Part shown: positions 9,306 through 34,958 of the stretch, one piece after another | How the letters are laid out: every line of letters starts with the position of its first letter | Position numbering within the stretch: position 1 is the first letter of the stretch | Source of the DNA: an uncultured Pseudomonadota bacterium | GTDB taxonomy: Bacteria; Myxococcota_A; Polyangia; Fen-1088 | Direction: 5' to 3' | NCBI GenBank assembly: GCA_963847705.1 | Contig: CAWKBC010000040.1 | Coordinates: 32,001 to 96,000 of the forward strand | DNA length: 64,000 bases | Translations under genes and position numbers: made by a program | Notes under the pieces: generated by a model | Told to the model about the DNA's origin: nothing | The model's input: only the letters and a program-made list of their open reading frames with translations | Database searches by the model: none

Positions 9306-10064
9306 TCACTTGGCCTTTTTAGGCGTGGGCGGCTGAGACTTCTGGCGCCAGGAGTCGGCGTCGATGTCGATGACGTGGCAGTGCTGGACGAAGCGGTCGA
9401 CGAGGGCGGCGACGCAGGCGGCACCGGGAAAGACCGTGCCCCACTGCTTGAAGGGCAAATTCGTGGTGATGACGACGGACCTGGTCTCGTGCCTGCGGCT
9501 GACGATGTTGTAGAGGAGATCGGCGGAGCGGCTGTCGCAGGGGAGGTAGCCGAGCTCATCGACAATCAAGAGCTTCGGCGCGAGGTACCTGTGGCGCAGA
9601 GCGCGTTCGAGAGCGGGCAGCGACTCGCGACGAAGGAGATCGGTCAGTAGCGCGGCGAGGCTAGAAAAGCGGACGGAGTGGCCGCGGGTGAGGGCGGCGA
9701 AGCCGAGATTCTGCGCGAGCGTGGTTTTGCCGACGCCGCTCGGCCCGCGCAGGAGCACGTTGTCGCCGCGCTCAAGGAAATCGAGGTTGGTGTGCAGGCT
9801 CTCATAGAGGTTGCGGTCGATGGAGCGGGGATGGTTCCAGTCGAAGCGGTCGAGGGTGGTGAATTTGCCGAGGGTTGCGAGGCGGGTGCGCGCGGCGAGA
9901 TTGCGGCTCTCGCGTTCGCGGCGCTCCATCTCGACCAGCTTCTCGCAGGCCTCGACGGGGCCGATGCGACTGTGGGTGGCGTGCTCGAAGAGAGCGCGGA
10001 GCGCGGCCAGCGAGACGCGGAAGCCGAGCTGGCGCAGCTGGGTGGCGATGTCATCGCTTGGCAT
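9306..10064 (-). CDS. istB: IS21 helper ATPase IstB
   Basis: GPSGVGKTT, LLIVDELGY, ITTNLPF, DRFVQH; start MPSDD overlaps istA end. Confidence 0.93.
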   Translation of the reverse strand: MPSDDIATQLRQLGFRVSLAALRALFEHATHSRIGPVEACEKLVEMERRERESRNLAARTRLATLGKFTTLDRFDWNHPRSIDRNLYESLHTNLDFLERGDNVLLRGPSGVGKTTLAQNLGFAALTRGHSVRFSSLAALLTDLLRRESLPALERALRHRYLAPKLLIVDELGYLPCDSRSADLLYNIVSRRHETRSVVITTNLPFKQWGTVFPGAACVAALVDRFVQHCHVIDIDADSWRQKSQPPTPKKAK

Positions 10065-11526
10065 CGTAGCCCCCGAGATCGTGCGGGATGACGTCGCGGT
10101 CGGGGATGCCATCCCCGAGCGGGATATCGATGGGGACGGGATGCTCGGCGGCGCGGCGGTGCTTCTCGCACAGCACGCCCACTTCGCCGGGGTCGTGCGT
10201 GCCGCGCTCGACGGTTTCCGCGACGGCCTTCCCGAAGATGTCGGCGCCGTAAAGGTCGAGCAGCTTGCCGGTCTGGGCCACCATGCTTCCGATGTTGCGG
10301 CCCGCCTCGACCCAGCGCTCGATGAGGACATCGACTTGTGGCGCGACGGTGCGCAGTCGATCGCGGCCGGCGGAGGGCGCGGCGCCGCGCTTGCGACGCA
10401 GGATCTCGGCACGGTGATCGGGATGCTCGATCTTCTGGCGGTGGCCCCACGAGCGGGGGTGCTGGGCGACGACGGCGGCGCCGTCGAGCAGACGGACGGA
10501 GCGATCGTCGGCGACGATGGTGAGGGTGCGCTCGACGTGGTCCGGCGGCACCGAATAGACGTTGGTGTCGAAGCGGGCGAAGGCGGTCTTGTCGACGAGC
10601 ACGGGCTGTACCACGTCAGTGGCGGGCATCGGGTCGGGCAGCGGGAGCAAGCGCTGCTTCTCCTCGACCAGGCAGTCGGCGATCGTGCGTTGCGGGAAAT
10701 TGGGATGTCGCTGCTGGTGCGCGATGGTGTCGATGAAGGCGAGCAGCTCCCGGTTGCCGTGCTCGACGTCGTAGATGTCGCGGCCAGCGAGGAAGCGCTC
10801 CCGAAGGAAGCGAATCTTTCGCTCCACGCGTCCCTTCTCGTTCCCCCGGTACGGGGCGCACAGCCGCAGCTGGACGTGCATGGCGCTGCCGAGGTCGAGG
10901 AGCAAGGGATGGAAGCGGGCCGCGTCGCCGTGCCGTTCGAGCACGACAATCTTCGGATTGTCGAAGAGCCACTGGCGGGTCGAGCCGCCGAAGTAGGTCG
11001 ACGCACGCGCCAGCGAGCGCAAGAGCGAGTGCACGGTGGTGTCGAAGCAGAATTCACCCCACATGGCGCGCGACCAGGCCAGCACCATCACGAAGAGCCA
11101 CAGTGAGCGGCTGCCCCCGCCCGGCACCGGAATCTGCCCGACGTGAGCCCAGTCGATCTGAGCCTGCTCGCCGATGAGGGGATCGAGACGCAGGAAGGCC
11201 TCGCGCTTGGGCGTGGGACGCGCCGTCATGACGAAGCGGCGCAGGGTACGGGCGCTGCCGCGAAAGCCGCGCTCCTTGAGCATGTCGAGCAGCCGCGTCG
11301 ATCGCAGGCGCGGATACTTGAGCAGCGTCTCATTGATGAAAGCGACGTACGGCACGACGAGGAGAGATCTCCGCTCGACCCGATCGGTTCGGGGCCGTAG
11401 CAGCCCCAGAACGCGGCGGACGACATCCTCGTGGACGCCGAGTTGGGCGGCGATGGTGCCCACCTTCCAGTGCTCGGCGTGATGAAGGCGCGCGATCTCC
11501 GCCTCGACTTCGGCGGCGACGGTCAT
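10051..11526 (-). CDS. istA: IS21 DDE transposase IstA
   Basis: N-terminal HTH, GEQAQIDW, LFDNPK, EKGRVER, NVYSVP. Confidence 0.95.
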   Translation of the reverse strand: MTVAAEVEAEIARLHHAEHWKVGTIAAQLGVHEDVVRRVLGLLRPRTDRVERRSLLVVPYVAFINETLLKYPRLRSTRLLDMLKERGFRGSARTLRRFVMTARPTPKREAFLRLDPLIGEQAQIDWAHVGQIPVPGGGSRSLWLFVMVLAWSRAMWGEFCFDTTVHSLLRSLARASTYFGGSTRQWLFDNPKIVVLERHGDAARFHPLLLDLGSAMHVQLRLCAPYRGNEKGRVERKIRFLRERFLAGRDIYDVEHGNRELLAFIDTIAHQQRHPNFPQRTIADCLVEEKQRLLPLPDPMPATDVVQPVLVDKTAFARFDTNVYSVPPDHVERTLTIVADDRSVRLLDGAAVVAQHPRSWGHRQKIEHPDHRAEILRRKRGAAPSAGRDRLRTVAPQVDVLIERWVEAGRNIGSMVAQTGKLLDLYGADIFGKAVAETVERGTHDPGEVGVLCEKHRRAAEHPVPIDIPLGDGIPDRDVIPHDLGGYDAKR

Positions 11527-13499: not shown

Positions 13500-13598
13500 A
13501 TGCCCCCGGAGTTGAACTCCTCGCCGCGCTCTTTGGGCCAGCTTGAGAAGCCGCTGGCGAACGGACGCGACCAGATCGCGCGGGGGCCGTGCCTTCAC
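13500..13598 (-). pseudogene. Truncated/frameshifted AbiEii-like toxin N-terminus (3' limit approximate)
   Basis: GTGA overlap with abiEi; MKARPPRDLVASVRQRLLKLA then shifted ERGEEFN and loss of the rest. Confidence 0.65.
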
Positions 13599-14209
13599 GA
13601 GACGACCGCTTCCAGATAGGGCCTCATCACGTTCACTACGCGCACGACGGACGCGGCCTCGGTGAGGTCGTCCATGGGCCGGCGCGAACGACGGTGCTCG
13701 CGGAGGGCCTCTAGCGCCACGTCGAGCCCGATCTTGTTGCGGTACTTGAAGCAGTCGGCGACGGTGCGGGCGACGGTCGTGACCCTGACGGGTACGCCCT
13801 CGATGACGTGAACCTCGACACCGTGCTTGAGCGCGGCTCCGGAGAACCGGACGATCCGGAGCGGAAGATCATGAACGGTCGGCTTGCGATCCTTGACCCC
13901 GATGGCAAGCCAGGTCTCGAAGGGAGCCTGGGTCCCGAGGCCGTGAAACTGCAGGGCCGACAGAAGGCAGACCACACCATTCGGTACGCGGAGGGCAGCG
14001 GCAGCGAGGCCGTGGTGCTCCGTGGCCTGGAATCCCGCCGCCGGGTAGAGGCCTCGCCCCAGCCGTTCCAGCTTGCCAGCCTCGACCAGTCTGCGGATGG
14101 CGGGACGCGACGTCCCTTTGGCTTCCAGGTCACGGCTACGCATGAGCCTGCGCCGGCGGCTCAGGTCAGCTTGATGCCTTGGGCCAGGCTGTGTACGTTT
14201 CGTCGGCAT
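13595..14209 (-). CDS. Type IV TA antitoxin, AbiEi family
   Basis: GKLERLGRGLY wHTH, GVVCLLSALQFHGL, ARTVADCFKYRNKIGLDVALEAL. Confidence 0.9.
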   Translation of the reverse strand: MPTKRTQPGPRHQADLSRRRRLMRSRDLEAKGTSRPAIRRLVEAGKLERLGRGLYPAAGFQATEHHGLAAAALRVPNGVVCLLSALQFHGLGTQAPFETWLAIGVKDRKPTVHDLPLRIVRFSGAALKHGVEVHVIEGVPVRVTTVARTVADCFKYRNKIGLDVALEALREHRRSRRPMDDLTEAASVVRVVNVMRPYLEAVVS

Positions 14210-17340: not shown

Positions 17341-17370
17341 GGATAGCAGGATGGGGGCTTGTCCGGACAC
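17341..17370 (-). other. oriT with MOB_P-type nic site
   Basis: Minus strand CATCCTG^C (17353-17346) matches YATCCTG^Y; adjacent palindrome TGTCCGGACA; lies between mobC and mobB. Confidence 0.75.
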
Positions 17371-17514
17371 ATGCGGCTTCCGCCGCACGTGCCCTCCCAA
17401 GCCCCGCTCCGCCCCGCCCGTTCGGCGCTCCGCTTCTCACGGACAGGGCTGCGCCAGACTCGGAGCTGCTCGGCGCTACCGCTTCTCGCAGTCGGTCGGT
17501 CGGAGGCGACAGCG

Positions 17515-17826
17515 ATGCCGTTTCGTAGGAAGGGAAAAGCGGGTCTCACGGCCCGCCTCGACGTGCGCGTCTCGCCCGCCGAGAAGAAGCAGCTTGGGGG
17601 CATCGCTCGCGAAGCGGGCCTCCCCGTCGCCGAGCTGGTGCGCCTGCGCGCGCTCGGGCGGCCGGTCGTGTCCCGCACGGACGCCACGACCATCCGGGAG
17701 CTACGGCGCCTCGGGGGCCTGCTCAAGATGGTCCACGTCGAGAGCGGCGGCGCCTACCGCCAGCAGACGGCCGAGCTGCTCACGATGCTGCGCGCCGCGG
17801 TCGGCAAGCTGGCGGGCGGGCAGTAG
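17515..17826 (+). CDS. mobB: MobB-like RHH relaxosome protein (TraJ-like)
   Basis: GGAGG RBS; RLDVRVSPAEK...ELRRLGGLLK. Confidence 0.82.
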   Translation: MPFRRKGKAGLTARLDVRVSPAEKKQLGGIAREAGLPVAELVRLRALGRPVVSRTDATTIRELRRLGGLLKMVHVESGGAYRQQTAELLTMLRAAVGKLAGGQ

Positions 17827-17839
17827 GGAGGCAGGGACG

Positions 17840-19861
17840 ATGATCGTCAAGAAGGTCCCCACGTCCAAGCACGCCCCGGCCAAGAGCAAGGCCCACAACG
17901 TGCGCGCCCTCGCCGACTACATCGCCGGCCCCAAGGCCGGCGGCGCCGGTGAGAAGGTGGAGCACCGCGGGGCTCTGAACCTCCTCAACCTCGATCACGA
18001 GGGACAGGTGCAGGAGATGATCGACCTCGCCGAGACGGCCAAGCGCAGCCCGCAGCCGGTGCAGCACTGGATCATGAGCTGGCGGGAGGGGGAGCAGCCG
18101 ACGTCGGCCCAGGCCGATCAGGCGGCCAGGATGTTCCTGGACGAGATGGGCTTGGCCGGCCACCAGGCGCTCTATGGATTGCACCGCGACACGGAGAACT
18201 GGCACCTCCACCTGGCCGTCAACCGCGTCCACCCCGAGACGGAGAAGCTCGTCACCGTCAACAACGGCTTCGACCACGAGGTCGCCCACCGGGCGATCGC
18301 TCGCATCGAGCACGCGCAGGGGTGGCAGAGGGAGGAGCGCGGCCTGTTCCAGATGCGGGAGGACGGGCGCGTTGAGCGCGCACGTCCGCGCGACGAGCAA
18401 GAACGCAAGCCATCCGTTCGAGCCCGCGATTTCGAAGAGCGGGTGGGCGCCCGGAGCGCCGAGCGTGTGGCCATCGAGGACGGAGCGCCCGCCATCCGCG
18501 CGGCCGGGAGTTGGCGGGAAATGCACGAGGCCCTGGCCGAGAAGGGGATGCGCCTCGAGAGGAAGGGCTCAGGCGCGATTCTGTGGATCGGCGATCAACC
18601 GGTGAAGGCGAGCAGCGCCGGCCGCGACTGTTCCATGTCGGCGCTCCAGAAGCGTCTGGGCGAGTTTCAACCTGCGAGGGATACCGCGCGCGTGATGACA
18701 CGCACCCGAGCCCCCGAGCCGATCATGCCCAGCGCCCCCGGCTGGAAGCAGTACACCGACGCACGACGACAGCACTACCTGGAGCGTTCCCGCAGACGGG
18801 AACGGCAGATGGAGCAGCAGAGGAAGGGTCGGGAACGCATGGCCGCTCGTCATCGGCAAGAGCGAGCAGACATCTTTCGCGGATCCTGGAAGGGACGGGG
18901 CGCTCTCCTCAACGCGACCAGGAATCTGCTCGCCGGTCGTCAAGCGCAGGAAAAGGCCGAGCAGCTTGATCGCCAAAGGCTGGAGCGCGGGGTACCGGAC
19001 AAGGACCGGGGACGGTTCCCGAGCTACGAAGAATGGCTTCACCAAAGGGATCACGGGCTCGCGCAGGGGTGGCGACATCGAGAACGACGGCCGCCTGGCA
19101 TAGAGGGGCCGACGTTCGTGCGGCCCGCGCCCCAAGATATCCGCGCGTTCGCCCCGGTCGTCGAAGGTTGGCACGTCCACTATCGTCGCGTCGGCGAGCG
19201 CGGCTCCCCTGCCTTCACAGACCGGGGTAAGGAGATCGACATCTACGACAGCAACCGACGGGAAAGCGTCCTCGCCGCCCTCCAGTTGAGCGCCCAGAAG
19301 TGGGGCGCGTTCACCATTCGCGGAAACGAGCGGTTCCGGAGCATGTGCGTCGAGTTGGCAGCAGAGCACGGCTTCAAGATCGCGAACCCGGAGCTCCAGC
19401 AAGCCATCGTCGCCGAGCGGAAACGGATTCGGACACGTGGAAGAGAGCGCACGACGGCGCCTGTGCGCCGCGCGGTCGAGATCGTGGCGACTCGGACGCC
19501 AGCGGACGTCTATCGGCGTCACCTGGCGGATGTCACCCGGGAGCGCCCGGGTCAGCCCGTCGACCCCTCGCGGGTCGATACCGAGATCGCTGTTCGCATG
19601 CGTCTTGCGGGCCATCGCCGGGGCGAAATCGAGCGAGCGATCAGAGAGGCCGTACCGGCAGATCGGCGCGGCGAGACGCGCGATTGGGATGTTTACGCGA
19701 AGCGCACGGTGGCAGTCGCCTTCGGTATTCCTGGGGACCGCCTATCTGAGCACCTCAGACGGCAGCACGACCGATTCCGCCGCCTCCAAGAGCGCCATCG
19801 CGAAGAGCCCGAACGCCTACCGCCTGGCGATCCATTCTCCCGCTCTGGACCCGAACGCTAA
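17840..19861 (+). CDS. mobA: MOB_P relaxase MobA with LPD7-like and RepB'-C-terminal-like regions
   Basis: LADYI, HWIMSWREGE, HRDTENWHLHLAVNR; FTDRGKEI...AQKWG; DPSRVDTEIAVRMRLAGH. Confidence 0.92.
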   Translation: MIVKKVPTSKHAPAKSKAHNVRALADYIAGPKAGGAGEKVEHRGALNLLNLDHEGQVQEMIDLAETAKRSPQPVQHWIMSWREGEQPTSAQADQAARMFLDEMGLAGHQALYGLHRDTENWHLHLAVNRVHPETEKLVTVNNGFDHEVAHRAIARIEHAQGWQREERGLFQMREDGRVERARPRDEQERKPSVRARDFEERVGARSAERVAIEDGAPAIRAAGSWREMHEALAEKGMRLERKGSGAILWIGDQPVKASSAGRDCSMSALQKRLGEFQPARDTARVMTRTRAPEPIMPSAPGWKQYTDARRQHYLERSRRRERQMEQQRKGRERMAARHRQERADIFRGSWKGRGALLNATRNLLAGRQAQEKAEQLDRQRLERGVPDKDRGRFPSYEEWLHQRDHGLAQGWRHRERRPPGIEGPTFVRPAPQDIRAFAPVVEGWHVHYRRVGERGSPAFTDRGKEIDIYDSNRRESVLAALQLSAQKWGAFTIRGNERFRSMCVELAAEHGFKIANPELQQAIVAERKRIRTRGRERTTAPVRRAVEIVATRTPADVYRRHLADVTRERPGQPVDPSRVDTEIAVRMRLAGHRRGEIERAIREAVPADRRGETRDWDVYAKRTVAVAFGIPGDRLSEHLRRQHDRFRRLQERHREEPERLPPGDPFSRSGPER

Positions 19862-20665: not shown

Positions 20666-23086
20666 GTGAAGATCCTCCATATCTCTGACCTGCACGTAAC
20701 ACCACCGAACAAGAGTCTACGTCAGGTCTGGTCACCCGCGGCAGCGGAGCTCTCGCGGGGAGGCCACGAATCCTTTGATTTCGTGGTCGTAAGCGGTGAC
20801 CTCAGTCAGCAGGCCCAGAAGAGCGAGTACGATGCCCTTCTGAAGTTCTCTCGGGACTACCTGGTGCCACTGGTCTCGAATGAAGTGACCCGTGTTGTCT
20901 TCGTCCCAGGAAATCACGATGTGGACTGGACCGCAGAGTTCGCCGAGCCGGTTCAGATGTCCCATATCAAGGATCGGGCAGACCTAGAGCAACTCGAGAA
21001 GACCTTCAAGGCGGTCAGCAAGTCGCCTCAGGACTGTGGTCACCGCGTTGCGCTCAGCCGGTTCGGACACCTTGAACTTCTCAAGATTGATCCAACTGCC
21101 TACAGGAACCGGTTAACAACGGCCCAGGCGTTCCTAGATGCCTTCTATGATGGCTCATTAACGAAGCCGACAGGTGTGTCAAAGCATTTTGAACTCATGG
21201 CCGATCCCATCGAAGGGAAGGATTGGTCCGCTCACGTGTTTCCAAGTTCCAATGTGGCGTTTTTCGGACTTAATTCCTGCCATCTAAACGATACGTACTG
21301 GCACGGCGCGCACTTTAACCCGGAAGCGCTTGCGAACGTGACATCGCGTGTTGCCTCGTTGAAACGTCTCCACAAAGACATGCAATTCGTTGCGGTTTGG
21401 CATCATGGATTTGTCTCCGAAAGGGGAAGGCCTGACCGCCTGACGCTGGAAGACATCGGCGACCTCCTCAATGCAGGCTTCGTCGCGGGCTTCCATGGGC
21501 ATACCCACAAAGCTGACCAGCAGATCGTCGACCTGCTCCGGACTCGAATTGCAATCATTTCCACCGGGTCTCTTGGCGCCGGTGCGAGCGAACGACCCGG
21601 AGCGGTCGGCAATCAGTTTTCTATTGTGACTTTAAAGCCGGGCAGAATTCGCTCTGACGTCTTCTCACTGGATGACCAAAACAAACAGTACTCTGGCGGA
21701 CATCACAGATCGTTCTCGATTTCGCCGCGCGACCGGATTCGCATTTCTGAAGTTGCTGTCGCCACTCACGAACGAACTTGGACGGTCCGCGAAGATGGAA
21801 TTTCCCAGGTGTCGGTCAAGCTGACCACTGTGCGAACGGATGACCGCGTTGTTCTCGCTCAATTGTGTCCTCCTTTCTGCAATACGCTTTTCGACAAGCA
21901 AGCCGTCGTCGACCGGGGATATCTACCGGTTAGTGAGACCGTAATGGCCGATGGAAAGATTCGTTACACAGTATCGCCGCCGGCGACATCCTACGACGAT
22001 CTCTCCTGGCAGTACTCCGTTTCGAACGCGATCGCCCTGACCCAAGCAGACCTGTCTATTGTGCCCAATCGGCCGTCGCTGTTTCCGAATCTCCCGCAGC
22101 GATTCGAGACTCGAGGACACACCGTAAAGATGGAGACCGAACGCCTCATCTTGAGGATCGTCCTTCCGAGTCCCTATTCAGCCGTCGAGAAGGTTGGAGT
22201 GCAGGTCGAGAAGCAGATTACCGTCGCTGACGAAATCCATTGGGAGCGGGTGCCGTCCGAAGAACGCCGATGTACGATTGAAACCACGAAAGAGGTTCTA
22301 GAGTTGGCAGTTAGCTACCCGGTCGTCGGCTATCGATACAGCATCATCTACATACCGCCGACCGTGGGTGAGCCGCTGAGGCGCGCTGTATTGCAATTAG
22401 GTGGCCGTCTGATTGAGCAGTGCCGGTTGCGGGTTCGAAGCGACGCTAACCGTTCCCTTTCGTCAGCTCTTCAATCTGCAGTTCGAGACGTCTTCAGCGG
22501 AGTTTTCTCGGACGTTGTCCCAGAGAATGGGGCCGCCGAGCTCTTGCTTGGGGAGGAGGACGGCTGGATTGCTCACGTCTGGGACCACAGAGATCGTACG
22601 CTATATCCGATCTTTGGGCAGTTCAGCCCGCGCGCGTGGGGAAGAACCTTCCGTGCAGGGAATGGCGTCGCCGGGCACGCGTTTCGATTTGCGAAGGCCG
22701 CCTTTTGGTATCTCGGCGACGAAGGAATCGGCTCGTGCGTTTACGAACAGGCCGTCCGAACGAACTGTGAGTGGATTTTAGCAATTCCGATCCAAGTCAA
22801 GCCCCAAGGGGCGGCGATCGCCGTGGTGTCGTTCTCCGGTACTGCCAGCGCGCACCCTCTCAATCGACGTCTGTTTAGCCTCGTCCAACATCTGTCGGCA
22901 AAGAGCGATGGAGAGCCTGGCCTGTCAAGCAAAGATCAGGACGACCTCGATTCTCTGGCAACCCAACTGAATGTTTCATTCTGGCAGCTGCTCGAAAAGG
23001 GCGCCTGGCTGCAGCCTGCCGATCGTCGATATGCGCGTGAAATCGTGTCTGCCTTTGCGCCTACGTTATCTAATCCAAGTAATTGA
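20666..23086 (+). CDS. Calcineurin-like metallophosphoesterase fused to beta-rich domain and C-terminal GAF-like domain
   Basis: SDLH, SGDL, PGNHD, WHH, HGHTH; C-terminal GNGVAGHAF...ILAIPI...AVVSF. Confidence 0.85.
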   Translation: MKILHISDLHVTPPNKSLRQVWSPAAAELSRGGHESFDFVVVSGDLSQQAQKSEYDALLKFSRDYLVPLVSNEVTRVVFVPGNHDVDWTAEFAEPVQMSHIKDRADLEQLEKTFKAVSKSPQDCGHRVALSRFGHLELLKIDPTAYRNRLTTAQAFLDAFYDGSLTKPTGVSKHFELMADPIEGKDWSAHVFPSSNVAFFGLNSCHLNDTYWHGAHFNPEALANVTSRVASLKRLHKDMQFVAVWHHGFVSERGRPDRLTLEDIGDLLNAGFVAGFHGHTHKADQQIVDLLRTRIAIISTGSLGAGASERPGAVGNQFSIVTLKPGRIRSDVFSLDDQNKQYSGGHHRSFSISPRDRIRISEVAVATHERTWTVREDGISQVSVKLTTVRTDDRVVLAQLCPPFCNTLFDKQAVVDRGYLPVSETVMADGKIRYTVSPPATSYDDLSWQYSVSNAIALTQADLSIVPNRPSLFPNLPQRFETRGHTVKMETERLILRIVLPSPYSAVEKVGVQVEKQITVADEIHWERVPSEERRCTIETTKEVLELAVSYPVVGYRYSIIYIPPTVGEPLRRAVLQLGGRLIEQCRLRVRSDANRSLSSALQSAVRDVFSGVFSDVVPENGAAELLLGEEDGWIAHVWDHRDRTLYPIFGQFSPRAWGRTFRAGNGVAGHAFRFAKAAFWYLGDEGIGSCVYEQAVRTNCEWILAIPIQVKPQGAAIAVVSFSGTASAHPLNRRLFSLVQHLSAKSDGEPGLSSKDQDDLDSLATQLNVSFWQLLEKGAWLQPADRRYAREIVSAFAPTLSNPSN

Positions 23087-23189: not shown

Positions 23190-24365
23190 TCACCTCGCAC
23201 GGAGTCGCCTTTCCGAGGTCTCCACCACCTCGAACAATCCGACGGCTTCCCAGGCGCGGTTACGCTTTCCTGCGTTGACTCGCTTGATCACGCCGGCTTC
23301 CTCAAGCTGAATCATGGCCAGACGGGCCGCCTGGTTCGAGACACTGGCGATTTTCTCCGCGGCTCCGACGTCGAGGATTGGGTGTCCTGGTAAGGCCTCG
23401 ATGAGCTTGTCGGCGGCTGAACCCGAGCGGGGCCGACCGACCGCTTCTCGCCACTGCGTGCGTAATCGGTCGATCGCCGACGCCAGTCTGCCCGCCTCGT
23501 CAGCCGCCGTTCGGACTGCCGCCGAAAATACTCCGCACCACTCAGCCACTTTTCCCGCCCGGAAGGCCACCAGTCCCCGAACATAGGCCTTCGCGTTAGC
23601 CCCGAGCACCAGGCTCACCGGCGGGACGAACCCAGGAGTCAGACCTCGGCGGCGCAGGACGGCGTGGATGAGGCAGCGACCCACACGACCGTTTCCGTCC
23701 GCGAACGGATGGATCGTCTCGAACTGGGCGTGGACGATCGCCGCCTGGATGACCGCGGGCAGGTCGTCTCGGGACGCGAAGATGCAGAGATCGGCCACCA
23801 AGCTAGGGACTCGATCCTCTGGCGGCGGGATGAAGTCTGCGTGTTCCGGCGTACTCCCGCCTCCGATCCAGCCCTGGGCCGTCCGAAGCTTTCCGCCAAG
23901 GTGCCGATCGGGCGTGGCCTCGAGCAGTATCCGGTGGACGTTTAGGACGTCGCGAGTCGCGAGCGGTTTGCTTCGACTTCCGAGCGCGACAGCTGCTTCC
24001 ATCGCCGCGACGTTTCCCAAAACAGAGTCAGCCGTCAGGTCCTTGTGGGTCCGGCCAAAGTCGGCCCGGGCGAGGCGCCGGTGTGAGATCTCGAGACCCT
24101 CGATCCGTGACGAGGCAACCGATTCGGCGCGAAGAAGCTGCCGCCCAAGCGCTTCCCAAGAGACTCCGCCGGGTGGTTGAGCTCCGAGCTGCCGCACAGC
24201 CGTCGTCGCGGCCTCGGCCGCTTCGGCGACATCCGCCGGAATCGCCAGGTCTAGCTCGCCGATTTCGTCAGGGACGAAGGCCTCGTAGTAGAAGCCGCTT
24301 CGCGACTTTCGACCTCCGAACGCCTCCAGGTCCGCCCGCCAGTGGCGCTTCACGAGCGTCGGCAT
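23190..24365 (-). CDS. Fic-family protein
   Basis: ESVASSRIEG, HPFADGNGRVGR, C-terminal wHTH-like region. Confidence 0.93.
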   Translation of the reverse strand: MPTLVKRHWRADLEAFGGRKSRSGFYYEAFVPDEIGELDLAIPADVAEAAEAATTAVRQLGAQPPGGVSWEALGRQLLRAESVASSRIEGLEISHRRLARADFGRTHKDLTADSVLGNVAAMEAAVALGSRSKPLATRDVLNVHRILLEATPDRHLGGKLRTAQGWIGGGSTPEHADFIPPPEDRVPSLVADLCIFASRDDLPAVIQAAIVHAQFETIHPFADGNGRVGRCLIHAVLRRRGLTPGFVPPVSLVLGANAKAYVRGLVAFRAGKVAEWCGVFSAAVRTAADEAGRLASAIDRLRTQWREAVGRPRSGSAADKLIEALPGHPILDVGAAEKIASVSNQAARLAMIQLEEAGVIKRVNAGKRNRAWEAVGLFEVVETSERRLRAR

Positions 24366-26647: not shown

Positions 26648-28867
26648 GTGAATGACGCTCTGTCAGCCCTGCTGGACACGTTTGAGCATCAACTCTTGGG
26701 CCTCACGCGACGTCAGTTCCTGATCGACGCATTCCAGGCCGACCTCGACAAGGTGACGCGGGGTGAGCCATTCAGGTACCGAAACGAGGTCCTGTGGCGG
26801 ATGTTCCTCGACACGCGCGACGCCCACGTCGTCAGCCTGGCGAGCTGGGCACGCTCCGTCTACCAGCCGGACGGCCTGATCGACCGACTGCGGGCCTATC
26901 ACGCTCATGATCTGCCGACCAAGCGGCCACCGGGACCGCTCGACGACGATCCCTCTTGGCGCGCGGGCCGAGATCGTGAACACGCTGACGCGTTGGCCCG
27001 GCTGTTTCCGGGAATGCCGGGGGCGTACCCGGGCGACCAGCAGTTCGACCAACTCCGCGACGCGTTCGTCGCGCGGATGAAACCCGTCGTCGAGGACGCC
27101 TCCAACCGCGTCCGACCGTTCGACCGGGACCCGCAGGTAGGCAGCGTGAAGATGCTTGATTTCGGGGAACTCCGGGACGCCATCAGGTACGCCGAGCAGC
27201 TGATGAACGACCTCAGCATGGTCGGATGCCAGCGCAAGGACGACTATCGAGAGACGAACAACCCGGACGCTGCCGACGTGGTCCCTGACCTGGTCGACGC
27301 TATCGTGCTAGGAGCCCGCGAAGAGATCGAGCGGGCGCGAGGTGAGCTGGATAGGATCGCGTTCTACGACGAGCTCCGCCACCGGCACGCCACTCACACG
27401 AAGAGACCGACGCGGTTCTTCAACGACAAGATATTCGCCGAGTCGGACGACGGCAGCCCGACGCAGTCCGAGACGAGATACGTCGGGTTCTTTCCGGCCC
27501 TCCCGCTCGACAAGAACCTCGAGCTTGGCGAGTGGGTTGTCGGCACTCCACCGGCCGCCACGCCTTGGGCGTCGGATAGGTTTCGCGAGCTCTCGGAATC
27601 CTTGATCCGCTCGTTCAAGAAGCGAGATTTCGAGGGGGGCGCGATGCTCTGGCACCGGGACCGTGGCTTCGACGGGTCGAAGCCGACTAACGAGGAGATC
27701 GGCGCGATCCGCGCCGCCGTGACCTTCGCGGTGCTCGACACAAACGACCGTCTCCGGTTGACCGAGCCTGACCACGCGAACCAAGCCCGCGAGATGGCGA
27801 CGACGGAGAACGCGGACCTGTTCATACAGCCGATCACCGACGACAACGGCGGGATCACTCATCGGCGGGGCGGCCTCCTGAGGGGGATGCTGGTGGGCAA
27901 CATGAAGATCGGCGGCGCCCCCCCACCGCTTGCGGACGCGGTTGAGAAGATCGACAGGCCTGTCCCGGTGTCGGCCTTCCTCGCGCGCGCGGTCTACGAC
28001 ACCGTCCGCACCGAGAACCGGCGGGGACGGGCCATCGCGACGGCGGCGGAGTGGCACCGAGTGGCCCTGTCGAATCCCGAGGCCGTCACGATGGGCCAGC
28101 GGCTCATTGTCCTGAAGACCGGCTTCGAGGCGCTGTTCCGCACGAGCAACTCCCGCGTTGCTGCGCGGAAGCTGCGGTCTCTGTTCGAGAGCAGGACGCG
28201 GGCGCGGAAACACCTCGACCTCCTTCCCTGGGATGGGCTGCTTTGGTCTCCGAGGGAAAAGAGGTACCTCTGGCGCTGGTGCTGGATCGATGGGGAGCGA
28301 CAGATTGAGGCGTTCAGCGAGATCGAGCACTGGTTCATGGCACTCGCCGACGCGAGGAACGCCGTCATTCACGAGGGGCGGCTGACGACCTGGACCTACG
28401 AAGCGCCGCCCGAGCGCCCGCTGTCGGTCTATGCCGGCTGGCTTCTCTGGGTCGGCGAGCGCGTGCTGCGAGAGGCGATCAAAGCGAAGATCGGCCCGGA
28501 GGTGCTCCTGTGCGGGGCTATCGCCCGGCGAGCGTGGGCTGAGAAACAGTTCGGTGATCAGGCCCGCCAGCTGATGGCTGCGGCGAAGGCGCGTGCGAAA
28601 GCGCGCGCCGCCGCGGGGACGGAACCGGCGAGGCCCGCCGAGGCGCACGCGCCCCGCTCCCTGTCGAAGATTTTGGCCTTTCTAGGCGTCCCGGCGGCCA
28701 ATTTGGTGGTGGTCGAGGTCCTTACGCAACTGGTAGCTGGCTACACACACGGGGCGAGCGCGCGCCGCGGCCGGGTCAAGATGTCGATCACCGAGTCCGA
28801 GTTCCTCGCACTCCGCGCCGCCGGCGCCGAAGACAAGCTGCACCGGTTTTGGTACCCATGCCCGTAG
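26648..28867 (+). CDS. 739-aa multidomain protein with HEPN-like motif (ApeA-like C-terminal part)
   Basis: LKTGFEALF ... ARNAVIHEG (Rx4H). Confidence 0.7.
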   Translation: MNDALSALLDTFEHQLLGLTRRQFLIDAFQADLDKVTRGEPFRYRNEVLWRMFLDTRDAHVVSLASWARSVYQPDGLIDRLRAYHAHDLPTKRPPGPLDDDPSWRAGRDREHADALARLFPGMPGAYPGDQQFDQLRDAFVARMKPVVEDASNRVRPFDRDPQVGSVKMLDFGELRDAIRYAEQLMNDLSMVGCQRKDDYRETNNPDAADVVPDLVDAIVLGAREEIERARGELDRIAFYDELRHRHATHTKRPTRFFNDKIFAESDDGSPTQSETRYVGFFPALPLDKNLELGEWVVGTPPAATPWASDRFRELSESLIRSFKKRDFEGGAMLWHRDRGFDGSKPTNEEIGAIRAAVTFAVLDTNDRLRLTEPDHANQAREMATTENADLFIQPITDDNGGITHRRGGLLRGMLVGNMKIGGAPPPLADAVEKIDRPVPVSAFLARAVYDTVRTENRRGRAIATAAEWHRVALSNPEAVTMGQRLIVLKTGFEALFRTSNSRVAARKLRSLFESRTRARKHLDLLPWDGLLWSPREKRYLWRWCWIDGERQIEAFSEIEHWFMALADARNAVIHEGRLTTWTYEAPPERPLSVYAGWLLWVGERVLREAIKAKIGPEVLLCGAIARRAWAEKQFGDQARQLMAAAKARAKARAAAGTEPARPAEAHAPRSLSKILAFLGVPAANLVVVEVLTQLVAGYTHGASARRGRVKMSITESEFLALRAAGAEDKLHRFWYPCP

Positions 28868-28962: not shown

Positions 28963-29931
28963 CTAGGCCCTGGACGGAAGCCGCGGTCCGCGGCCGAGCA
29001 CCGCGACGATCCGATCCGTCAGTCGTTTGGTCAGCTCCTCCAGCTTGCCGTCCTCCCACGTGAGGAGGTTCATGTGCTGCACGTCGAAGTGGACGCGGGT
29101 TTCGCTCTCCGGCCGCACCTGATCCTGGTTGCACAGCATAAAGACAGGGAGGTTGAGGCCGAAGGCAACCCCCGCCTCGTAGTACACGCCGCCCCGGTTT
29201 CCCCAAAAATCGGCCACCACGAACCGGCTCTCTCGGATCTTGGCGATGATCTCGTCCGTCACGCCGCCGATGAATTCCTCGCGATCGATCCGGCTTGGTC
29301 GGAACCCGGCCCTTTCGATCCCCGCCGCGATCGCGTTGAAAAGGCGGTCCGAGTCCTTGAACCACATCGCGATGAAGCCCTGGTCGCCAGCGGCTCTGGG
29401 GCGCGCCTCGAGCAGCTCCCAGCCCTTGTCGGTGAGGCGGACCTTGCCGTTGCCGATCTCGCTGATCAGCCCGTCTCGCACGAGGGGCTGGAAGACGAAG
29501 TTCCACTCGTCCCAGTTGCCATCGTCGACGGAGTGGCAGTAGGCGACCGGATAGTCGCGAGACGGGTCGTAGTCCACCAGCGCCCCGTGTGGCCTCCGCG
29601 ATTTTCTCGACTCGTAAGCGAGCCAGTCCAGGAGCGCATCTCGCTTCTCGGTGAAGGTGCGCTCGCGGATCTCCCCCCTCATCAGCGCCTTGAACAGGTC
29701 TTCATTGACGAGCACGGGAGGCACCTGGCGGACCGGAGCTGTTCGAGTGAGGGCGCTCAAGAGATCGCGATCGCCAGGAAACGCGTTCATTCCCCTGCCC
29801 GCGTACCAGACGCCGGTCGTGACGTTGAACGAGCCACACCGGCGGCACTCGACCGGGTAGATGTACGAATCTGACCGACGGCCAAAATCGGTCGTAACCG
29901 GCTGCCTGCAGAGGGGGCACGTTTCGCTCAT
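28963..29931 (-). CDS. Zn-ribbon + wHTH + nucleoside 2-deoxyribosyltransferase/TIR-like protein
   Basis: CPLC/CRRC; LTDKGW; FIAMWF, FVVADF, GGVYYEAGVA, HFDV. Confidence 0.82.
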   Translation of the reverse strand: MSETCPLCRQPVTTDFGRRSDSYIYPVECRRCGSFNVTTGVWYAGRGMNAFPGDRDLLSALTRTAPVRQVPPVLVNEDLFKALMRGEIRERTFTEKRDALLDWLAYESRKSRRPHGALVDYDPSRDYPVAYCHSVDDGNWDEWNFVFQPLVRDGLISEIGNGKVRLTDKGWELLEARPRAAGDQGFIAMWFKDSDRLFNAIAAGIERAGFRPSRIDREEFIGGVTDEIIAKIRESRFVVADFWGNRGGVYYEAGVAFGLNLPVFMLCNQDQVRPESETRVHFDVQHMNLLTWEDGKLEELTKRLTDRIVAVLGRGPRLPSRA

Positions 29932-30127
29932 GGGCGCCATCCTGCACCAATCCCGTGAGCGCCAGTGAGCGCTCCTGGGCGAAAGGCCCCTGGCGCGCGC
30001 TCTGAGGGGCGTTCGCCACCGCGGTCGGCGCCCAGGCCGACGACGCCGACGAACGCTGAGCGTCGGGGCCAGCGGCTACGCCCCCCGATGAACAGCAGGA
30101 GGCACTGTGGCGTGGAGTTCGTGGAGC

Positions 30128-30931
30128 TTAGCCCGAACTCACAAGGATCTTCAGCAAGTCGGCCACGTTCCCGGCCGTTGACGACGGCAACACGTTCTCT
30201 CGCCGCATAGCCTTCTCTGCCTCTACGTCTCCCTGCGTCCAGTGGCTGACGTCACGCAGCAGGTTGTAGGCATCGCCGTCGCGGTCACAGCCGTACTTCG
30301 CGTACACGTCGCTCACGGCGCACTTCTTCGCCATCGCGATGTCCCGAAACAGACTGTCTCCGACGTACACGGTCTCTTCGGCGGCTGAGCCGTTGTGCGC
30401 GATCACGAATTGAAGTGCCTTCGGATCGGGCTTCCGCTCTTGGATTGTGACCACATCGCGTGCGGTTGATACGGGCATTCGATTCGGGAACCGCTCGTTC
30501 GCCGTGGCATAGACTCGCTTCACCAAGGTGGTATCAATGCCAAGCGCTTCGCACCGAGCCGCAGCAAGCGCTGAGGGAGCATCGGTATGAAGGACGACGG
30601 TGTCGCCGTTCCTCTGGAGAGCAGCCCAAAGATCCTTAATTCCAGAGAAGAGGTGATGTCCGGCCCTTCGAGAGGCGCTAAGACCGTCGGCGAGCCCATG
30701 CGCCTCCTGTTCACCGAGCCCGGGAAACAGCGCCTTCAGATCGTCGGAGGAGAACGGAAACTCTGACGTGCCGACGCTCTGATGAAAGCTTCGAATAGTC
30801 CTTCGGACGTTCAGATCGTCTAGACCGGTGACGCGTCCGAGGGTGCTCAAGAACTCAGAAAAGGACGAACTCCACATCTTCAGCCAGTCGAAGATGGTGT
30901 CGTCGATATCGAAGACGATCAGCCGCGACAT
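30128..30931 (-). CDS. HAD-superfamily hydrolase
   Basis: FDIDDT motif I, HTD, RKPDP, YVGDSLFRDI. Confidence 0.9.
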   Translation of the reverse strand: MSRLIVFDIDDTIFDWLKMWSSSFSEFLSTLGRVTGLDDLNVRRTIRSFHQSVGTSEFPFSSDDLKALFPGLGEQEAHGLADGLSASRRAGHHLFSGIKDLWAALQRNGDTVVLHTDAPSALAAARCEALGIDTTLVKRVYATANERFPNRMPVSTARDVVTIQERKPDPKALQFVIAHNGSAAEETVYVGDSLFRDIAMAKKCAVSDVYAKYGCDRDGDAYNLLRDVSHWTQGDVEAEKAMRRENVLPSSTAGNVADLLKILVSSG

Positions 30932-30938
30932 CTGACGG

Positions 30939-32120
30939 CTATGCCGGCGCCGGGGCTGGGGACGGCGACGGATGTCCTTCCTCGTTCACCTTGAGCATCA
31001 GCTTGGAAAGCAACACCCGCAGGGGATAGATGGTGTGGCCAAACTTCTGCGCCGCCCTAGCATGGTCGAGAATGTCAGCAGCGGACCAATGAACGTTTAG
31101 AACTCCAATCGCTTCTCGATCTGCTTGCTCTTTGAAGTCCGAGGTAGGGATCAAGACTGGCAACGACATGAAGCCTGCAATGGATGGATCGCCTCGAAAA
31201 TACGCGCCTACAGCCTTCGCGACAGACGGGGAAAAGTCGCCGTACTTGACCATCCATCCCTCAATATCTTTGGCAGGATGAAAGTGCTCGAAGTCTTTTT
31301 TGACGAAACAGAACGGCGCACCGGGGAGAACGCTCCATCCACCATCCTGAGATCCGATCTTGAGAGGAACATCTAGGGCAAAATTCGGCAGCCCGTGTTT
31401 GTTATCCTCCCGGCTTGTAGCCACGGAGAAGGCACTGGGCATTGCCAGAACGCCTCGAACACCTTCGAGGGTCGTGCCGGTAGCTCTGAACGCCACGTGC
31501 TGATCCCACTGCTGTGCCTTCTCGCTTGGGATGTACCACATCACGTTCGCTACAAAGTCGGGCTTCGCGGTCGGATCCTTACGACTGTCGTAGACGCTGG
31601 CTAGCTTTGCGATTGCCTTCAGTATTAACTGAATGGCTCGTCTGCATTGCTCAGGGTTGCTGGCTGCGCTGAAAACGGTGTGGCTCTTTTCAAACGTAAG
31701 GCCAAACTCGGATAGATAGTCCGGAGAAGCGTTCGTCGCGACTGCGTCTTCGATCTTCGCCGCGGCGAGTTCAAACTTCCTTTGCGTCTTCCGTTGGTGA
31801 AACTGCGACGCAGCGGCCCGAGCAATGTGCAGGACCGAAGTGATCGCGAGAAGCTCCCAAAACAGTCGCGCCCCACCAGGAAGCGTGGGGAACGCGGCGT
31901 CTCCGTGACGCCAGATAGTCAGCCCACTCGCCCAGCTCTTCAGCTCATCTGCGAAGACAGCGCCGACAAGGCCCGCGAGGATCGCCAGGGCAGCTTCGAC
32001 CGCGCCGAGGACCGGACTGGACCACAGCCACTTCAGCGCCCTCCACAGCGCCTTCAGGGCTTTCCAAATCCATTTCGACGCCGCCCAAACAGCCCGGCCT
32101 GCCTGCCGGTCACTCATCAA
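30939..32120 (-). CDS. Membrane protein (about 2 TM) with C-terminal GAF-like domain
   Basis: Hydrophobic N-terminal helices; LPGAPFCF, FMSLPV, IGVLNVH. Confidence 0.7.
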   Translation of the reverse strand: MMSDRQAGRAVWAASKWIWKALKALWRALKWLWSSPVLGAVEAALAILAGLVGAVFADELKSWASGLTIWRHGDAAFPTLPGGARLFWELLAITSVLHIARAAASQFHQRKTQRKFELAAAKIEDAVATNASPDYLSEFGLTFEKSHTVFSAASNPEQCRRAIQLILKAIAKLASVYDSRKDPTAKPDFVANVMWYIPSEKAQQWDQHVAFRATGTTLEGVRGVLAMPSAFSVATSREDNKHGLPNFALDVPLKIGSQDGGWSVLPGAPFCFVKKDFEHFHPAKDIEGWMVKYGDFSPSVAKAVGAYFRGDPSIAGFMSLPVLIPTSDFKEQADREAIGVLNVHWSAADILDHARAAQKFGHTIYPLRVLLSKLMLKVNEEGHPSPSPAPAPA

Positions 32121-32314
32121 CGAGGACTGGAACTGCTGCTGTCGCTGCCGGCCGTCCTCGACGACGCAGGCTTCTGATCCTGATTTTGCGTGGTGACCGC
32201 CGGGAACGAACGCGGACCCTCGCTAATGATGGTCGCCTTTCGCAACTTCCCCGTGCCCACCACGCTCAGAGCAGCGGCAGCCTCCGCGAGCGTTTCATCA
32301 AACGTCTTGCTCAT
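32117..32314 (-). CDS. Small hypothetical protein (65 aa), first gene of the HAD operon
   Basis: AGGAGG RBS; stop overlaps next start. Confidence 0.6.
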   Translation of the reverse strand: MSKTFDETLAEAAAALSVVGTGKLRKATIISEGPRSFPAVTTQNQDQKPASSRTAGSDSSSSSPR

Positions 32315-32332
32315 GGCTGCCTCCTGTTTTTT

Positions 32333-32361
32333 AGTGTACTGAACACTTGGTCAGTCGTCAA
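32333..32361 (-). promoter_or_regulatory. Near-consensus sigma-70 promoter
   Basis: TTGACG-17 nt-TACACT, 18 nt upstream of ATG 32314. Confidence 0.7.
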
Positions 32362-32587
32362 CGGGCTTTCTCAGAACCTCGTCTGGTCGGGTGCTCGCAC
32401 TTTAGCAGACCCGCGGATCGCGACTCCAAATTTAGACACGTTCCGTCGTCGGAGCCGGTGCGCTCGGGCACTTGAGCGGTAGCTCACAGTAGCGGCCCAA
32501 CCGCCGCCCAGCTCTGGCACCGGGTGACGAAGGAGGTCACACATTGAGCGTGACCTCTTGTGCCAGGTCGGGTGCATCATCTCGACC

Positions 32588-32890
32588 ATGAAGTGGCTCT
32601 GGACATGGGGCGGAACCTCATTCGGATACCGCGTGGACGATGACCTCCGGACGCACGACGGACGTCATGTTGGAAGGTTCCACGGGGATGAGGTCTACGG
32701 AACCGATGGCCGGTATCTAGGCGAGCTGAAGAGTGACAATCGACTGATCACATCTCGGTCGAAGAGCGCGCGTCGACAGGGTGCGTTCACTCCGTACGCT
32801 CGGAACGCACCATACTCCCGATACGCCAGCTACGCGGGCTACGCGATGTACGCGGGCTACGAAGACTTCCCCTCTCCCGACGAAATCTGA
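32588..32890 (+). CDS. Small beta-repeat protein (4-fold beta-flower-like)
   Basis: WLWTWGGTSFGY...DGRHVG...DGRYLGE repeats, Tyr-rich tail. Confidence 0.72.
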   Translation: MKWLWTWGGTSFGYRVDDDLRTHDGRHVGRFHGDEVYGTDGRYLGELKSDNRLITSRSKSARRQGAFTPYARNAPYSRYASYAGYAMYAGYEDFPSPDEI

Positions 32891-33559: not shown

Positions 33560-34756
33560 TCAAGAAATTCGCAGGGTTGTAGCTGGTTCGGATTCTGGTG
33601 AGATGGGTGGTTTGGCTCGATCCCCCACCTGATCCCCCACTTGGCTGGCCGGAGCCAGTAGGAGGAGGATCTTAGACGCCGCCGCCAGCTTCTCCCGAGC
33701 GTCTACGTGGGAGTAGTGCTCGGTCATCGCCGCCGTGACGTGGCCGGTGATCGACCTCGTCACGATCTCGCCCGCCACCTGACGAGCCAGGTTGTTGAAC
33801 GTCCGGCGCAGGCCGTGCACGCTCACCCGCTTCGTGATGCCGCAGCCCTTGAGCGCCCGACGGAGCGGGAACCGAAGAGCGTTCGGCCGCAACAACCCAC
33901 CGTCCGGTTCCGGGAACACCCACCCTTCCCCAAGCCCTACCGCCTGCCGAGCCAGAAGACGCACCCGATGCTTCTGAAGCGTGTCCGCCAGCTCACCCAC
34001 CAGCGGCACCGTGCGGCTGGTCCCTGTCTTCGTCGTCGACACCACCCCGTGCCACTGCGCCCGACGGACCCGAATGATCCCGGCATCCGCGTCCAGATCG
34101 GCCCACTTCAGTGCGGTCGCCTCACCGTAGCGCAGACCCGTGAGGGCCAGCGTCGCGGCGAGCGGATGATGGTCCGGCTCCTTTGCGGCGAGCCAGGTCA
34201 GAACGCAACCCAGCTCGGCCCCCGTGAGAAGGTTCGGCTCTTCGTCGGTTGGCCTGCGAACCGGAAGACGGCGAACCCGACGTGACGGGTTCCTCGGCAG
34301 ATCGAATTCCTGCACCGCGTCTTCCAGCACCATCCGCAACATCACCAGCGCCCCGTTCACCGTTGCTCCGGACTTCTTGCGCGCGAGCCGCGCCTGCCAC
34401 CCCCGAACATCCGATTCCATGATTCGATCGACGAAGAAATCGCCGAGATACGGCAACACGTAGGTGTCGAGCACCTCCGCGTACCGGCTACTCGACGACG
34501 CCTTGAGCCCGACTATGCGCGACGCCAACCACGAGGTCGCGTAGTCGCCGAGCCGGGGCACCTGGACGTCCCCACGTGCGTCGTTCCTGATTTGCTTCTG
34601 GAGCTCCGTTCGAAAGGACGCCGCTTCCTGCACGGTCCCCTCGACGACGCGATCCACCTCCTTCATCCGGCCGGTCCTTGGGTCGACGGCGCGGAGCCGG
34701 ATTCGCTTCCGTCCGTCGGACAACGTAGTGATTCCCGGATATCGACTCTTCGACAT
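33560..34756 (-). CDS. Tyrosine recombinase/integrase (phage-type)
   Basis: TGLRYGE, TTKT, HGLRRT, TGH, EHY; start MSKSRY or 34792. Confidence 0.93.
   Translation of the reverse strand: MSKSRYPGITTLSDGRKRIRLRAVDPRTGRMKEVDRVVEGTVQEAASFRTELQKQIRNDARGDVQVPRLGDYATSWLASRIVGLKASSSSRYAEVLDTYVLPYLGDFFVDRIMESDVRGWQARLARKKSGATVNGALVMLRMVLEDAVQEFDLPRNPSRRVRRLPVRRPTDEEPNLLTGAELGCVLTWLAAKEPDHHPLAATLALTGLRYGEATALKWADLDADAGIIRVRRAQWHGVVSTTKTGTSRTVPLVGELADTLQKHRVRLLARQAVGLGEGWVFPEPDGGLLRPNALRFPLRRALKGCGITKRVSVHGLRRTFNNLARQVAGEIVTRSITGHVTAAMTEHYSHVDAREKLAAASKILLLLAPASQVGDQVGDRAKPPISPESEPATTLRIS
33619..33642. repeat. Tandem GATCCCCCAC(C/T)T, candidate arm sites (left end of island 2)
   Basis: 12-bp period; recurs at 43016-43038. 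Confidence 0.65.
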
Positions 34757-34958
34757 GTTCAGCATCTCCATCCGGGGCCACAGGAGTGCCATGACCCAGG
34801 ATTATAGCGTCGAGATCTTCGCGTCTAAAGAGCCATATCCGGCCGCGACGACCGGCGGGGAGCAGCGCACCCGAGCAGACGAGATTCCGAACCGCCGAGG
34901 CCGAGCGATAGCGTAGGTAGGCGGCCGCCTCGAGTGTGGTGAGGTACGGTGAATTCAC
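34488..34958 (-). CDS. Excisionase-like HTH_17 protein (frame runs on into the integrase)
   Basis: YLTTLEAAAYLRY...GRIWLFRREDLDA directly upstream of int. Confidence 0.7.
   Translation of the reverse strand: MNSPYLTTLEAAAYLRYRSASAVRNLVCSGALLPAGRRGRIWLFRREDLDAIILGHGTPVAPDGDAEHVEESISGNHYVVRRTEANPAPRRRPKDRPDEGGGSRRRGDRAGSGVLSNGAPEANQERRTWGRPGAPARRLRDLVVGVAHSRAQGVVE

Follow-up and report, generated by a model that had tools for sequence, protein, structure and literature searches.

The window analyzed here is a stretch of 64,000 nucleotides (nt) of contig CAWKBC010000040.1 (positions 32,001 to 96,000 of the forward strand) from an uncultured bacterium (NCBI GenBank assembly GCA_963847705.1). At 30128-32361 it carries a three-gene cassette encoding a small protein, a membrane protein with a predicted GAF domain and a HAD phosphatase. 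We found that the membrane-GAF gene and the small gene form the conserved core of this cassette, with the HAD gene outside it. A role in conflict or defence is likely. The explanation that we favour, with slightly less than even confidence, is a type II toxin-antitoxin-like anti-phage module composed of a membrane GAF effector, a small inhibitor and an accessory HAD nucleotide phosphatase. The cassette comprises the following features:

32333..32361, minus strand: sigma-70-like promoter TTGACG-17-TACACT, 9/12 consensus positions, called from its position
32320..32325, minus strand: ribosome-binding site AGGAGG, 5 nt before the ATG of the small open reading frame (ORF)
32117..32314, minus strand: small protein of 65 amino acids (aa), ATG start, likely antitoxin
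30939..32120, minus strand: membrane protein of 392/393 aa with two predicted transmembrane (TM) helices and a predicted GAF domain, likely membrane effector or toxin
30128..30931, minus strand: HAD phosphatase of 267 aa with motifs I-IV intact, likely nucleotide phosphatase

All three genes are located on the minus strand and the HAD gene starts 7 nt past the stop of the membrane ORF. The latter spans 393 aa when read from the TTG at 32120, while translation probably begins at the ATG at 32117 (392 aa), given that a methionine fills that column in 118 of the 122 filled alignment rows. This ATG overlaps the stop of the small ORF as TGATG. An earlier note on this DNA, made from the letters alone, had described a three-gene operon of lower GC content with its own sigma-70 promoter. 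The ORFs, the AGGAGG site and the 7-nt gap were all reproduced from the sequence, and the GC content is indeed low (0.585 over 30128-32361 versus 0.691 genome-wide, with 0.18% of equal-sized genome windows that low). The promoter claim stands in part: the site is present 8 nt before the ribosome-binding site, and the count of TTGACG-17-TACACT sites (1 per 4.5 kb scanned versus 0.7 +/- 0.9 in shuffles) is within chance, so that the call is carried by this position. A 250-nt contig from an RNA library (32133-32380) was discounted as evidence of transcription since it reaches upstream of the predicted transcription start. In a search of sequencing runs all shares were at most 0.14; one soil DNA run contained fragments of the HAD gene and of the membrane gene with 96-99% identity, none of them bridging the two.

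The membrane protein has 404 relatives at E<=0.001 among 1.84 billion representatives clustered at 50% identity. No match to Pfam, PADLOC or NCBIfam was obtained for the protein itself or for the relatives scanned (4, 19, and 3, respectively, of 150 listed relatives). At the sequence level no GAF domain was matched in the membrane protein, and the family profile reached a best E-value of 0.21 against solved structures. Folding the protein, as the earlier note had proposed, yielded an AlphaFold2 model (134-sequence alignment) with a predicted local distance difference test (pLDDT) score of 93.8. The model consists of an amphipathic N-terminal helix, TM1 (~aa 36-55), TM2 (~aa 82-100), a long helical stalk and an alpha/beta domain (~aa 133-380); both model and hydropathy give two TM helices, not three. 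Foldseek gave seven matches in the PDB at E<=0.001, those listed being dominated by GAF domains of phosphodiesterases (PDE), a cyanobacterial cyclase and phytochromes as well as isolated GAFs, with target TM-scores of 0.56-0.69 for four single-domain GAFs and identities of 9-13%. The C-terminal domain is confidently predicted to have the GAF alpha/beta topology, and structure prediction together with fold search, but no sequence family, bears out the GAF-like C-terminus suspected in the earlier note. The conserved motifs LPGAP and GVLNxH presumably occupy the sites of structural motifs in GAF domains; N192 and N342/H344 are likewise conserved.

Both TM segments could be scored in 120 of the 134 alignment rows, with mean hydropathies of 1.81 and 1.72. 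Per 15 residues, the N-terminal and C-terminal flanks contain 2.5 and 3.8 basic residues, compared to 1.5 in the connecting loop of ~21 residues. Because the flanks are richer in basic residues than the loop, the GAF domain is predicted to be cytoplasmic, as judged by a simple charge rule, not by a dedicated predictor. The family is rare and patchily distributed over genome representatives (2/61, 2/401, and 2/401 genomes, own genome included), and the membrane protein was not found in the plasmids, viral contigs and phage records searched, the phage records also with its relative P0052. In a viral fold search with 30942-32120, TM-GAF-like proteins 190-260 aa long turned up in many phages, led by a Gordonia phage Finkle membrane protein (E=3.6e-5), and there are weak matches to class III holins (E=0.055 and 0.41).

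The small partner was identified by comparison with 26 other membrane-GAF loci (L003 and L009-L033, including two near-duplicate pairs). Since 24 of these were found with the pattern VLPGAP[LMF]AF and the window has VLPGAPFCF, the sample leans away from the window's subclade. A small ORF adjoins the membrane gene in 16/26 loci (15/24 after merging the near-duplicate pairs); it lies directly downstream in 15 of them (13 seeds, the duplicate L016, and L025) and directly upstream in L012. A conserved, coupled two-gene unit with a small partner, as in type II toxin-antitoxin systems, is thus found in 16/26 loci. With a size of 56-86 aa, the small ORF represents the sole recurring neighbour family besides integrases in the 26 loci. 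The proteins share an amphipathic helix, a glycine and a short hairpin-like segment, and the four examined have no Pfam match. The 13 seeds were picked by position, partly by eye, and include some close pairs. In a leave-one-out comparison, 11 of the 13 outscored all 4000 null ORFs from the genome, while L010 was matched by 2 and L032 by 78 of them. The upstream DNA is only 18-153 nt long in L003, L013, and L018, L022 is truncated within a weak candidate, and no downstream DNA is available for L026 and L033. Hexamers resembling a -10 element precede the downstream small gene in 10 of 14 loci; they come without a chance baseline and were left unused.

The small ORF of the window probably belongs to this partner family as well. 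Locus L012 provides the connection: its membrane protein lies in the window's clade (support 98 in a quick tree), and its upstream small ORF has the same TTGA overlap and resembles that of the window (BLASTP E=7e-5; 8 of 5000 shuffles reach the score). When L012 and L025 were added to the model, the window small ORF scored 12.0 bits and the only null ORF reaching that score was the small ORF itself. Gene overlaps of the TGATG or TTGA type are found in the window, L012, and L009. The structural model of the small protein (pLDDT 58) has an N-terminal helix (residues 5-20), the rest being of low confidence or disordered.

The HAD matches PDLC03008, the PADLOC profile for the hydrolase of the Hydrolase-3TM defence system, with E=1.5e-36 (124 bits, profile positions 5-279 of 288) and Pfam HAD_2 above the cut-off. 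The motifs I-IV of the HAD superfamily (DxD, T/S, K, GDxxxD) are complete, and the catalytic residues D8, D10, T116, K167, G191-D192, and D197 are invariant in 6/6 aligned proteins. In a quick midpoint-rooted tree with SH-aLRT support, built from 16 HADs including a distant one, three groups sort by partner. The first comprises five HADs with a 3TM partner, either separate or fused (L004-L007 and L037), which all match the 3TM profile PDLC03009. The second has four members, and the three with a known context (L035, L038, and L039) follow a PUA-metallophosphoesterase gene, as in PUA-Calcineurin-HAD (PUA-Cal-HAD) systems. The third contains the window HAD and P0004-P0008, separated from both other groups by a long branch with support 100. 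Judged by sequence, the HAD is a third lineage, with a third partner type, of the same defence HAD clade.

A HAD of this clade is found in none of the 26 other membrane-GAF loci, 21 of which have at least 400 nt of downstream DNA. The membrane protein therefore does not generally need the HAD, which was ruled out as a family-wide partner within this sample that leans away from the window's subclade. The earlier note had suggested a check for three-gene synteny; in the other loci sampled the small partner recurs and the HAD does not. Searches for the HAD context gave no confirmed case in metagenomes (62 candidates) or viral contigs (601 candidates), none in phage records, and 1/89 in genomes of the family and order, namely its own.

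Within the window's subclade, the HAD and the membrane protein seem to keep company. The two nearest relatives of the window membrane protein, P0011 and P0012, group together with it at support 99. P0011 and HAD P0006 each come from a Logan contig of 3631 nt, and P0012 and HAD P0008 each from a Logan contig of 2951 nt, lengths sufficient for all three genes. These are two exact size matches among 24 same-source pairs (P ~3e-4 to 3e-5, assuming a per-pair chance of 1/1000 to 1/3000). One size equality is due to chance, as HAD P0009 and L023, both on 1192 nt, are on contigs too short for both genes, which underlines the statistical nature of the size argument. The pairwise identities also run in step (64, 46, and 44% for the HAD; 62, 42, and 45% for the membrane protein). 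Indirectly, this indicates that the HAD has been travelling with the sub-branch since its members, now ~45% identical, diverged. The HAD is probably not a mere passenger in the window's subclade; its link appears to be confined to this narrow subclade and the HAD to be a later recruit.

The neighbourhoods of the relatives contain further genes of conflict and mobility. In L029 (411-7718) the membrane-GAF gene is located directly upstream of a BREX cluster (brxB, brxC, pglX), and in L026 (3-6961) directly downstream of a methylase and PLD-SNF2 helicase pair. Other neighbours are integrases (L011, L021), tRNAs (L003, L011, L012), a coupling protein (L021), and a terminase (L014). In two loci of the window's clade (L003:11104-11178 and L012:4840-4914) the membrane-GAF gene adjoins tRNA-Arg(CCG) and points toward it, and in L011 it is situated between tRNA-Gly/Cys and an integrase. 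A shared insertion hotspot is possible.

The coupled small protein, the lack of a catalytic or DNA-binding output and the occurrence on mobile elements near BREX, a methylase-helicase pair and integrases together read as a toxin-antitoxin or abortive-infection layout. Because of this layout and the precedent of the TM+GAF toxin toxFtsL(D9), we favour a membrane GAF effector that is braked by the small protein, with the HAD as an accessory nucleotide phosphatase. That the small protein is a direct inhibitor is slightly favoured, and that the HAD acts on nucleotides is moderately probable. The small, mostly disordered protein would be made first from the operon promoter and would fold onto the GAF domain or the stalk, keeping the membrane protein inactive. 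Phage infection (through host shut-off, or through a phage protein or nucleotide that enters the GAF pocket) would lift this brake, and the freed membrane protein may then oligomerise and block division or permeabilise the membrane, thereby aborting the infection. The HAD would remove the gamma-phosphate from (deoxy)nucleoside triphosphates like its sister-lineage relative and may act as a second arm that either reduces the supply of nucleotides or changes the input to the GAF domain.

Several observations weigh against such a module. The window small ORF scored 5.0 bits against the seeds alone, a value reached by 32 of the 4000 null ORFs (one being itself), and 3.6 bits with the 17-sequence model (76/4000); the hhalign probability against the family is 0.45% (not significant), and it has no database homologue. 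No small partner is present in L028, L029, and L030/L031 despite sufficient flanking DNA, nor in L013 and L018, both with short upstream DNA; such loci count against the module because a lethal toxin should rarely lose its antitoxin. A recognised defence system is next door in only two or three loci, most contigs being short and the count having no background comparison. The HAD co-location is deduced from equal contig sizes, with the gene order there unseen. Finally, toxFtsL(D9) is 281 aa long compared to 392 aa here, and was likened by its published description.

Related to the favoured module is a broader reading, which we consider rather unlikely: the family would be a widespread, so far undescribed group of bacterial immune receptors. 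Its two-helix membrane anchor would carry a cytoplasmic GAF domain able to sense a nucleotide derived from infection, whereupon the protein kills the cell; the small disordered inhibitor would gate it, and in one lineage a third branch of the anti-phage HAD clade would have been recruited to make or remove the ligand. The main rival, unlikely as well and partly compatible with the toxin-antitoxin-like module, is a signalling system: the HAD would make or destroy a phosphorylated molecule (a deoxynucleoside diphosphate or a phage-modified nucleotide) that is bound by the GAF domain and switches the effector on, with the small protein as a regulator and not a classical antitoxin. The nearest folds are indeed nucleotide-binding GAFs, namely those of PDE6/PDE2 and of a cyanobacterial adenylyl cyclase; within the subclade the divergence of the HAD parallels that of the membrane protein, and the HAD clade's partnership with an unrelated 3TM protein suggests repeated service to membrane effectors. 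The fold match at 9-13% identity is, however, uninformative on the ligand, and the GAF protein works without a HAD in the other loci, as 0/26 carry one. The roles may also be reversed in the subclade, with the membrane-GAF protein as sensor and scaffold and the docked HAD as the effector draining deoxynucleoside triphosphates (dNTPs). This is improbable, since it leaves the HAD-less majority of the family without an output. The intact motifs, invariant in 6/6, and the translational closeness of the HAD gene (7-nt gap) fit this reversal, as does the sister lineage. According to the available text on PUA-Cal-HAD (bioRxiv 10.64898/2026.01.15.699771), its HAD binds a sensor-scaffold partner and starts dNTP depletion, which a second enzyme is needed to complete; the window operon contains no such enzyme.

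Two further explanations dispense with an anti-phage role. An addiction module, or a lysis switch similar to a holin/antiholin pair, could stabilise or serve the mobile element with the HAD as a hitch-hiker. Occurrence of the family on integrative and phage-like elements, the phage TM-GAF proteins (best E=3.6e-5) and weak class III holin matches of the viral fold search, and AbiEi- and DUF433-type genes on the same element are all consistent with it. We regard it as being as improbable as the reversal of roles: the two other partner types of the HAD clade belong to anti-phage systems described as validated in the available sources, no endolysin-like gene is annotated beside the loci scanned, and the window GAF is predicted to be cytoplasmic whereas that of the T4 holin is a periplasmic GAF-like domain. 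A non-toxic membrane sensor of ordinary signalling or stress, the small protein being either its output or the part missing from a split GAF, is very improbable. GAF domains are mostly sensory, but the model is complete on its own (pLDDT 93.8) and aligns over entire GAF domains (target TM-scores 0.56-0.69), no kinase, cyclase or DNA-binding output is found in the operon or recurs among the neighbours, and the patchy, mobile spread is unlike that of a housekeeping sensor.

The cassette is located between a tRNA-Leu/integrase pair and a second integrase. The main features of this region are:

174-258: tRNA-Leu(CAG)
280-1524: phage-type integrase, beside tRNA-Leu
10051-11526: transposase
13595-14209: AbiEi
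17351-19861: relaxase with LPD7 and RepB-primase-like domains
33560-34792: second integrase

Between both integrases there are the relaxase, AbiEi, an AAA_21 ATPase, a SoFic-like Fic protein, a metallophosphoesterase, and a match to a TIR-type effector. The region from 174 to 34792 (~35 kb) probably represents an integrative mobilisable element at tRNA-Leu with conflict cargo. The gene at 20666-23086 (plus strand, GC 0.559) encodes an 806-aa protein with an N-terminal metallophosphoesterase, partial matches to PADLOC PDC-S60 and Effector, and a C-terminal region that is GAF-like by eye; it is a second candidate defence protein on the element. The Fic protein (23190-24365, minus strand) matches PADLOC SoFic with E=2.4e-70. 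The 739-aa ORF at 26648-28867 (plus strand) has no Pfam or PADLOC match, and by eye it presumably consists of two fused HEPN-like halves with an RxxxxH-type motif. The gene at 28963-29940 (minus strand), 187 nt downstream of the HAD gene on the same strand, encodes a protein of 325 aa; its N-terminal region resembles a CxxC zinc finger and its C-terminal domain a TIR or nucleoside deoxyribosyltransferase domain (PADLOC Effector TIR, E=1.5e-8). Divergent from the operon, a 110-aa beta-flower-like protein (PF21784, below cut-off) is encoded at 32558-32890 (plus strand). The zinc-finger/TIR-type gene and this upstream beta-flower gene were rejected as members of the system, as neither turns up again in a related locus.

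The membrane protein defines a family of ~400 clusters for which, among the members scanned, no Pfam, NCBIfam or PADLOC model exists, together with a previously unrecognised small partner gene. Annotation tools would miss the cassette or miscall it as a partial Hydrolase-3TM system. Its two-gene and three-gene versions offer a natural comparison, and the locus adds a third partner type to a HAD clade in which the role of the HAD has been worked out for PUA-Cal-HAD only. Should the reading as GAF immune receptors be true, phage defence would gain its first GAF-gated membrane effector, along with a direct route to what the HADs of Hydrolase-3TM-type systems do.

The individual parts resemble known kinds, either a toxin-antitoxin system with a TM-GAF toxin or a defence HAD with a membrane partner, while the combination and the family fall outside the libraries tested. 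The closest annotated system is Hydrolase-3TM (PADLOC PDLC03008 and PDLC03009; Rst_Hydrolase-3Tm in DefenseFinder, according to the earlier note), with which the cassette shares a HAD of the same clade adjoining a membrane protein on a mobile element. The 3TM partner has three TM helices and a model of 210 positions, whereas the window protein has two TM helices plus a GAF domain in 392 aa; the gene order is reversed in the window, with the HAD last, and there is an extra small gene. HADs of the window's lineage score 114-143 bits with PDLC03008 compared to 197-270 for true members. PDLC03009 matches neither the window membrane protein (E<=0.1) nor 19 relatives (E<=0.001), while 5/5 true loci (L004-L007 and L037) used as positive controls match at E<=5e-18. 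It was not found in the own genome, which is 85% complete, and the control genomes likewise gave no match. Scoring against the models of this system, as proposed in the earlier note, thus reveals a matching HAD and a non-matching membrane protein, i.e., a variant and not the known system; membership was rejected because the 3TM partner and the two-gene, HAD-first order are lacking. Hydrolase-3TM is also encountered as a fused HAD-3TM protein of ~500 aa on Arthrobacter and Rhizobium plasmids (L006:2971-4473 and L007:2926-4419). T4-type class III holins, which are controlled by small proteins, consist of an amphipathic N-terminal helix, one TM segment and a periplasmic GAF-like domain, unlike the two TM helices and predicted cytoplasmic GAF domain of the window protein, and the loci seen here are not lysis cassettes. 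As for Hydrolase+3TM, the available text reports that it blocks T7 by a mechanism described as unknown (Rousset et al., 2022; PMC9122126), and Table S2A of that paper places the HAD first, then the TM protein.

According to the available description, toxFtsL(D9) of Gelidibacter mesophilus (WP_027127282.1; NetFlax D9, a type II toxin-antitoxin system) is a 281-aa TM+GAF toxin that blocks division, lyses cells and is neutralised by PanA (PMC10440598). The window protein, known from sequence where that toxin is validated, has a similar predicted membrane-anchored helical stalk and GAF domain. The antitoxin PanA belongs to Panacea, whereas the window family has an unrelated protein of 56-86 aa, and that description includes no HAD; no Panacea-type Pfam match was found among the neighbours scanned. 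One Atlas cluster (274 aa, score 0.94; mostly Bacteroidota, with a GAF on 14% of its members) is a lead only toward toxFtsL(D9). A GAF-like domain is reported for Septu-ii too, in the available text without a membrane anchor (PMC11381338). In the literature covered, which is mostly open-access, no system of a 2TM-GAF protein with a small protein or with a HAD is described, although the supplements of the PUA-Cal-HAD preprint could list it. The role of HADs in defence is called unknown in the available part of PMC13092281, whose DefensePredictor system DS-9 has the same architecture as PUA-Cal-HAD. The window operon has no PUA or metallophosphoesterase gene and its HAD is partnered with a membrane GAF protein; the gene upstream of the HAD has no Pfam match, while true loci match PF24405 and PF00149. 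PUA-Cal-HAD nevertheless offers the best precedent for the biochemistry: there too a HAD of this clade is the last gene of the operon (L035, L038, and L039), and the available text identifies it as a dNTP gamma-phosphatase that, on its own, turns dATP and dGTP into their diphosphates and ATP into ADP (bioRxiv 10.64898/2026.01.15.699771).

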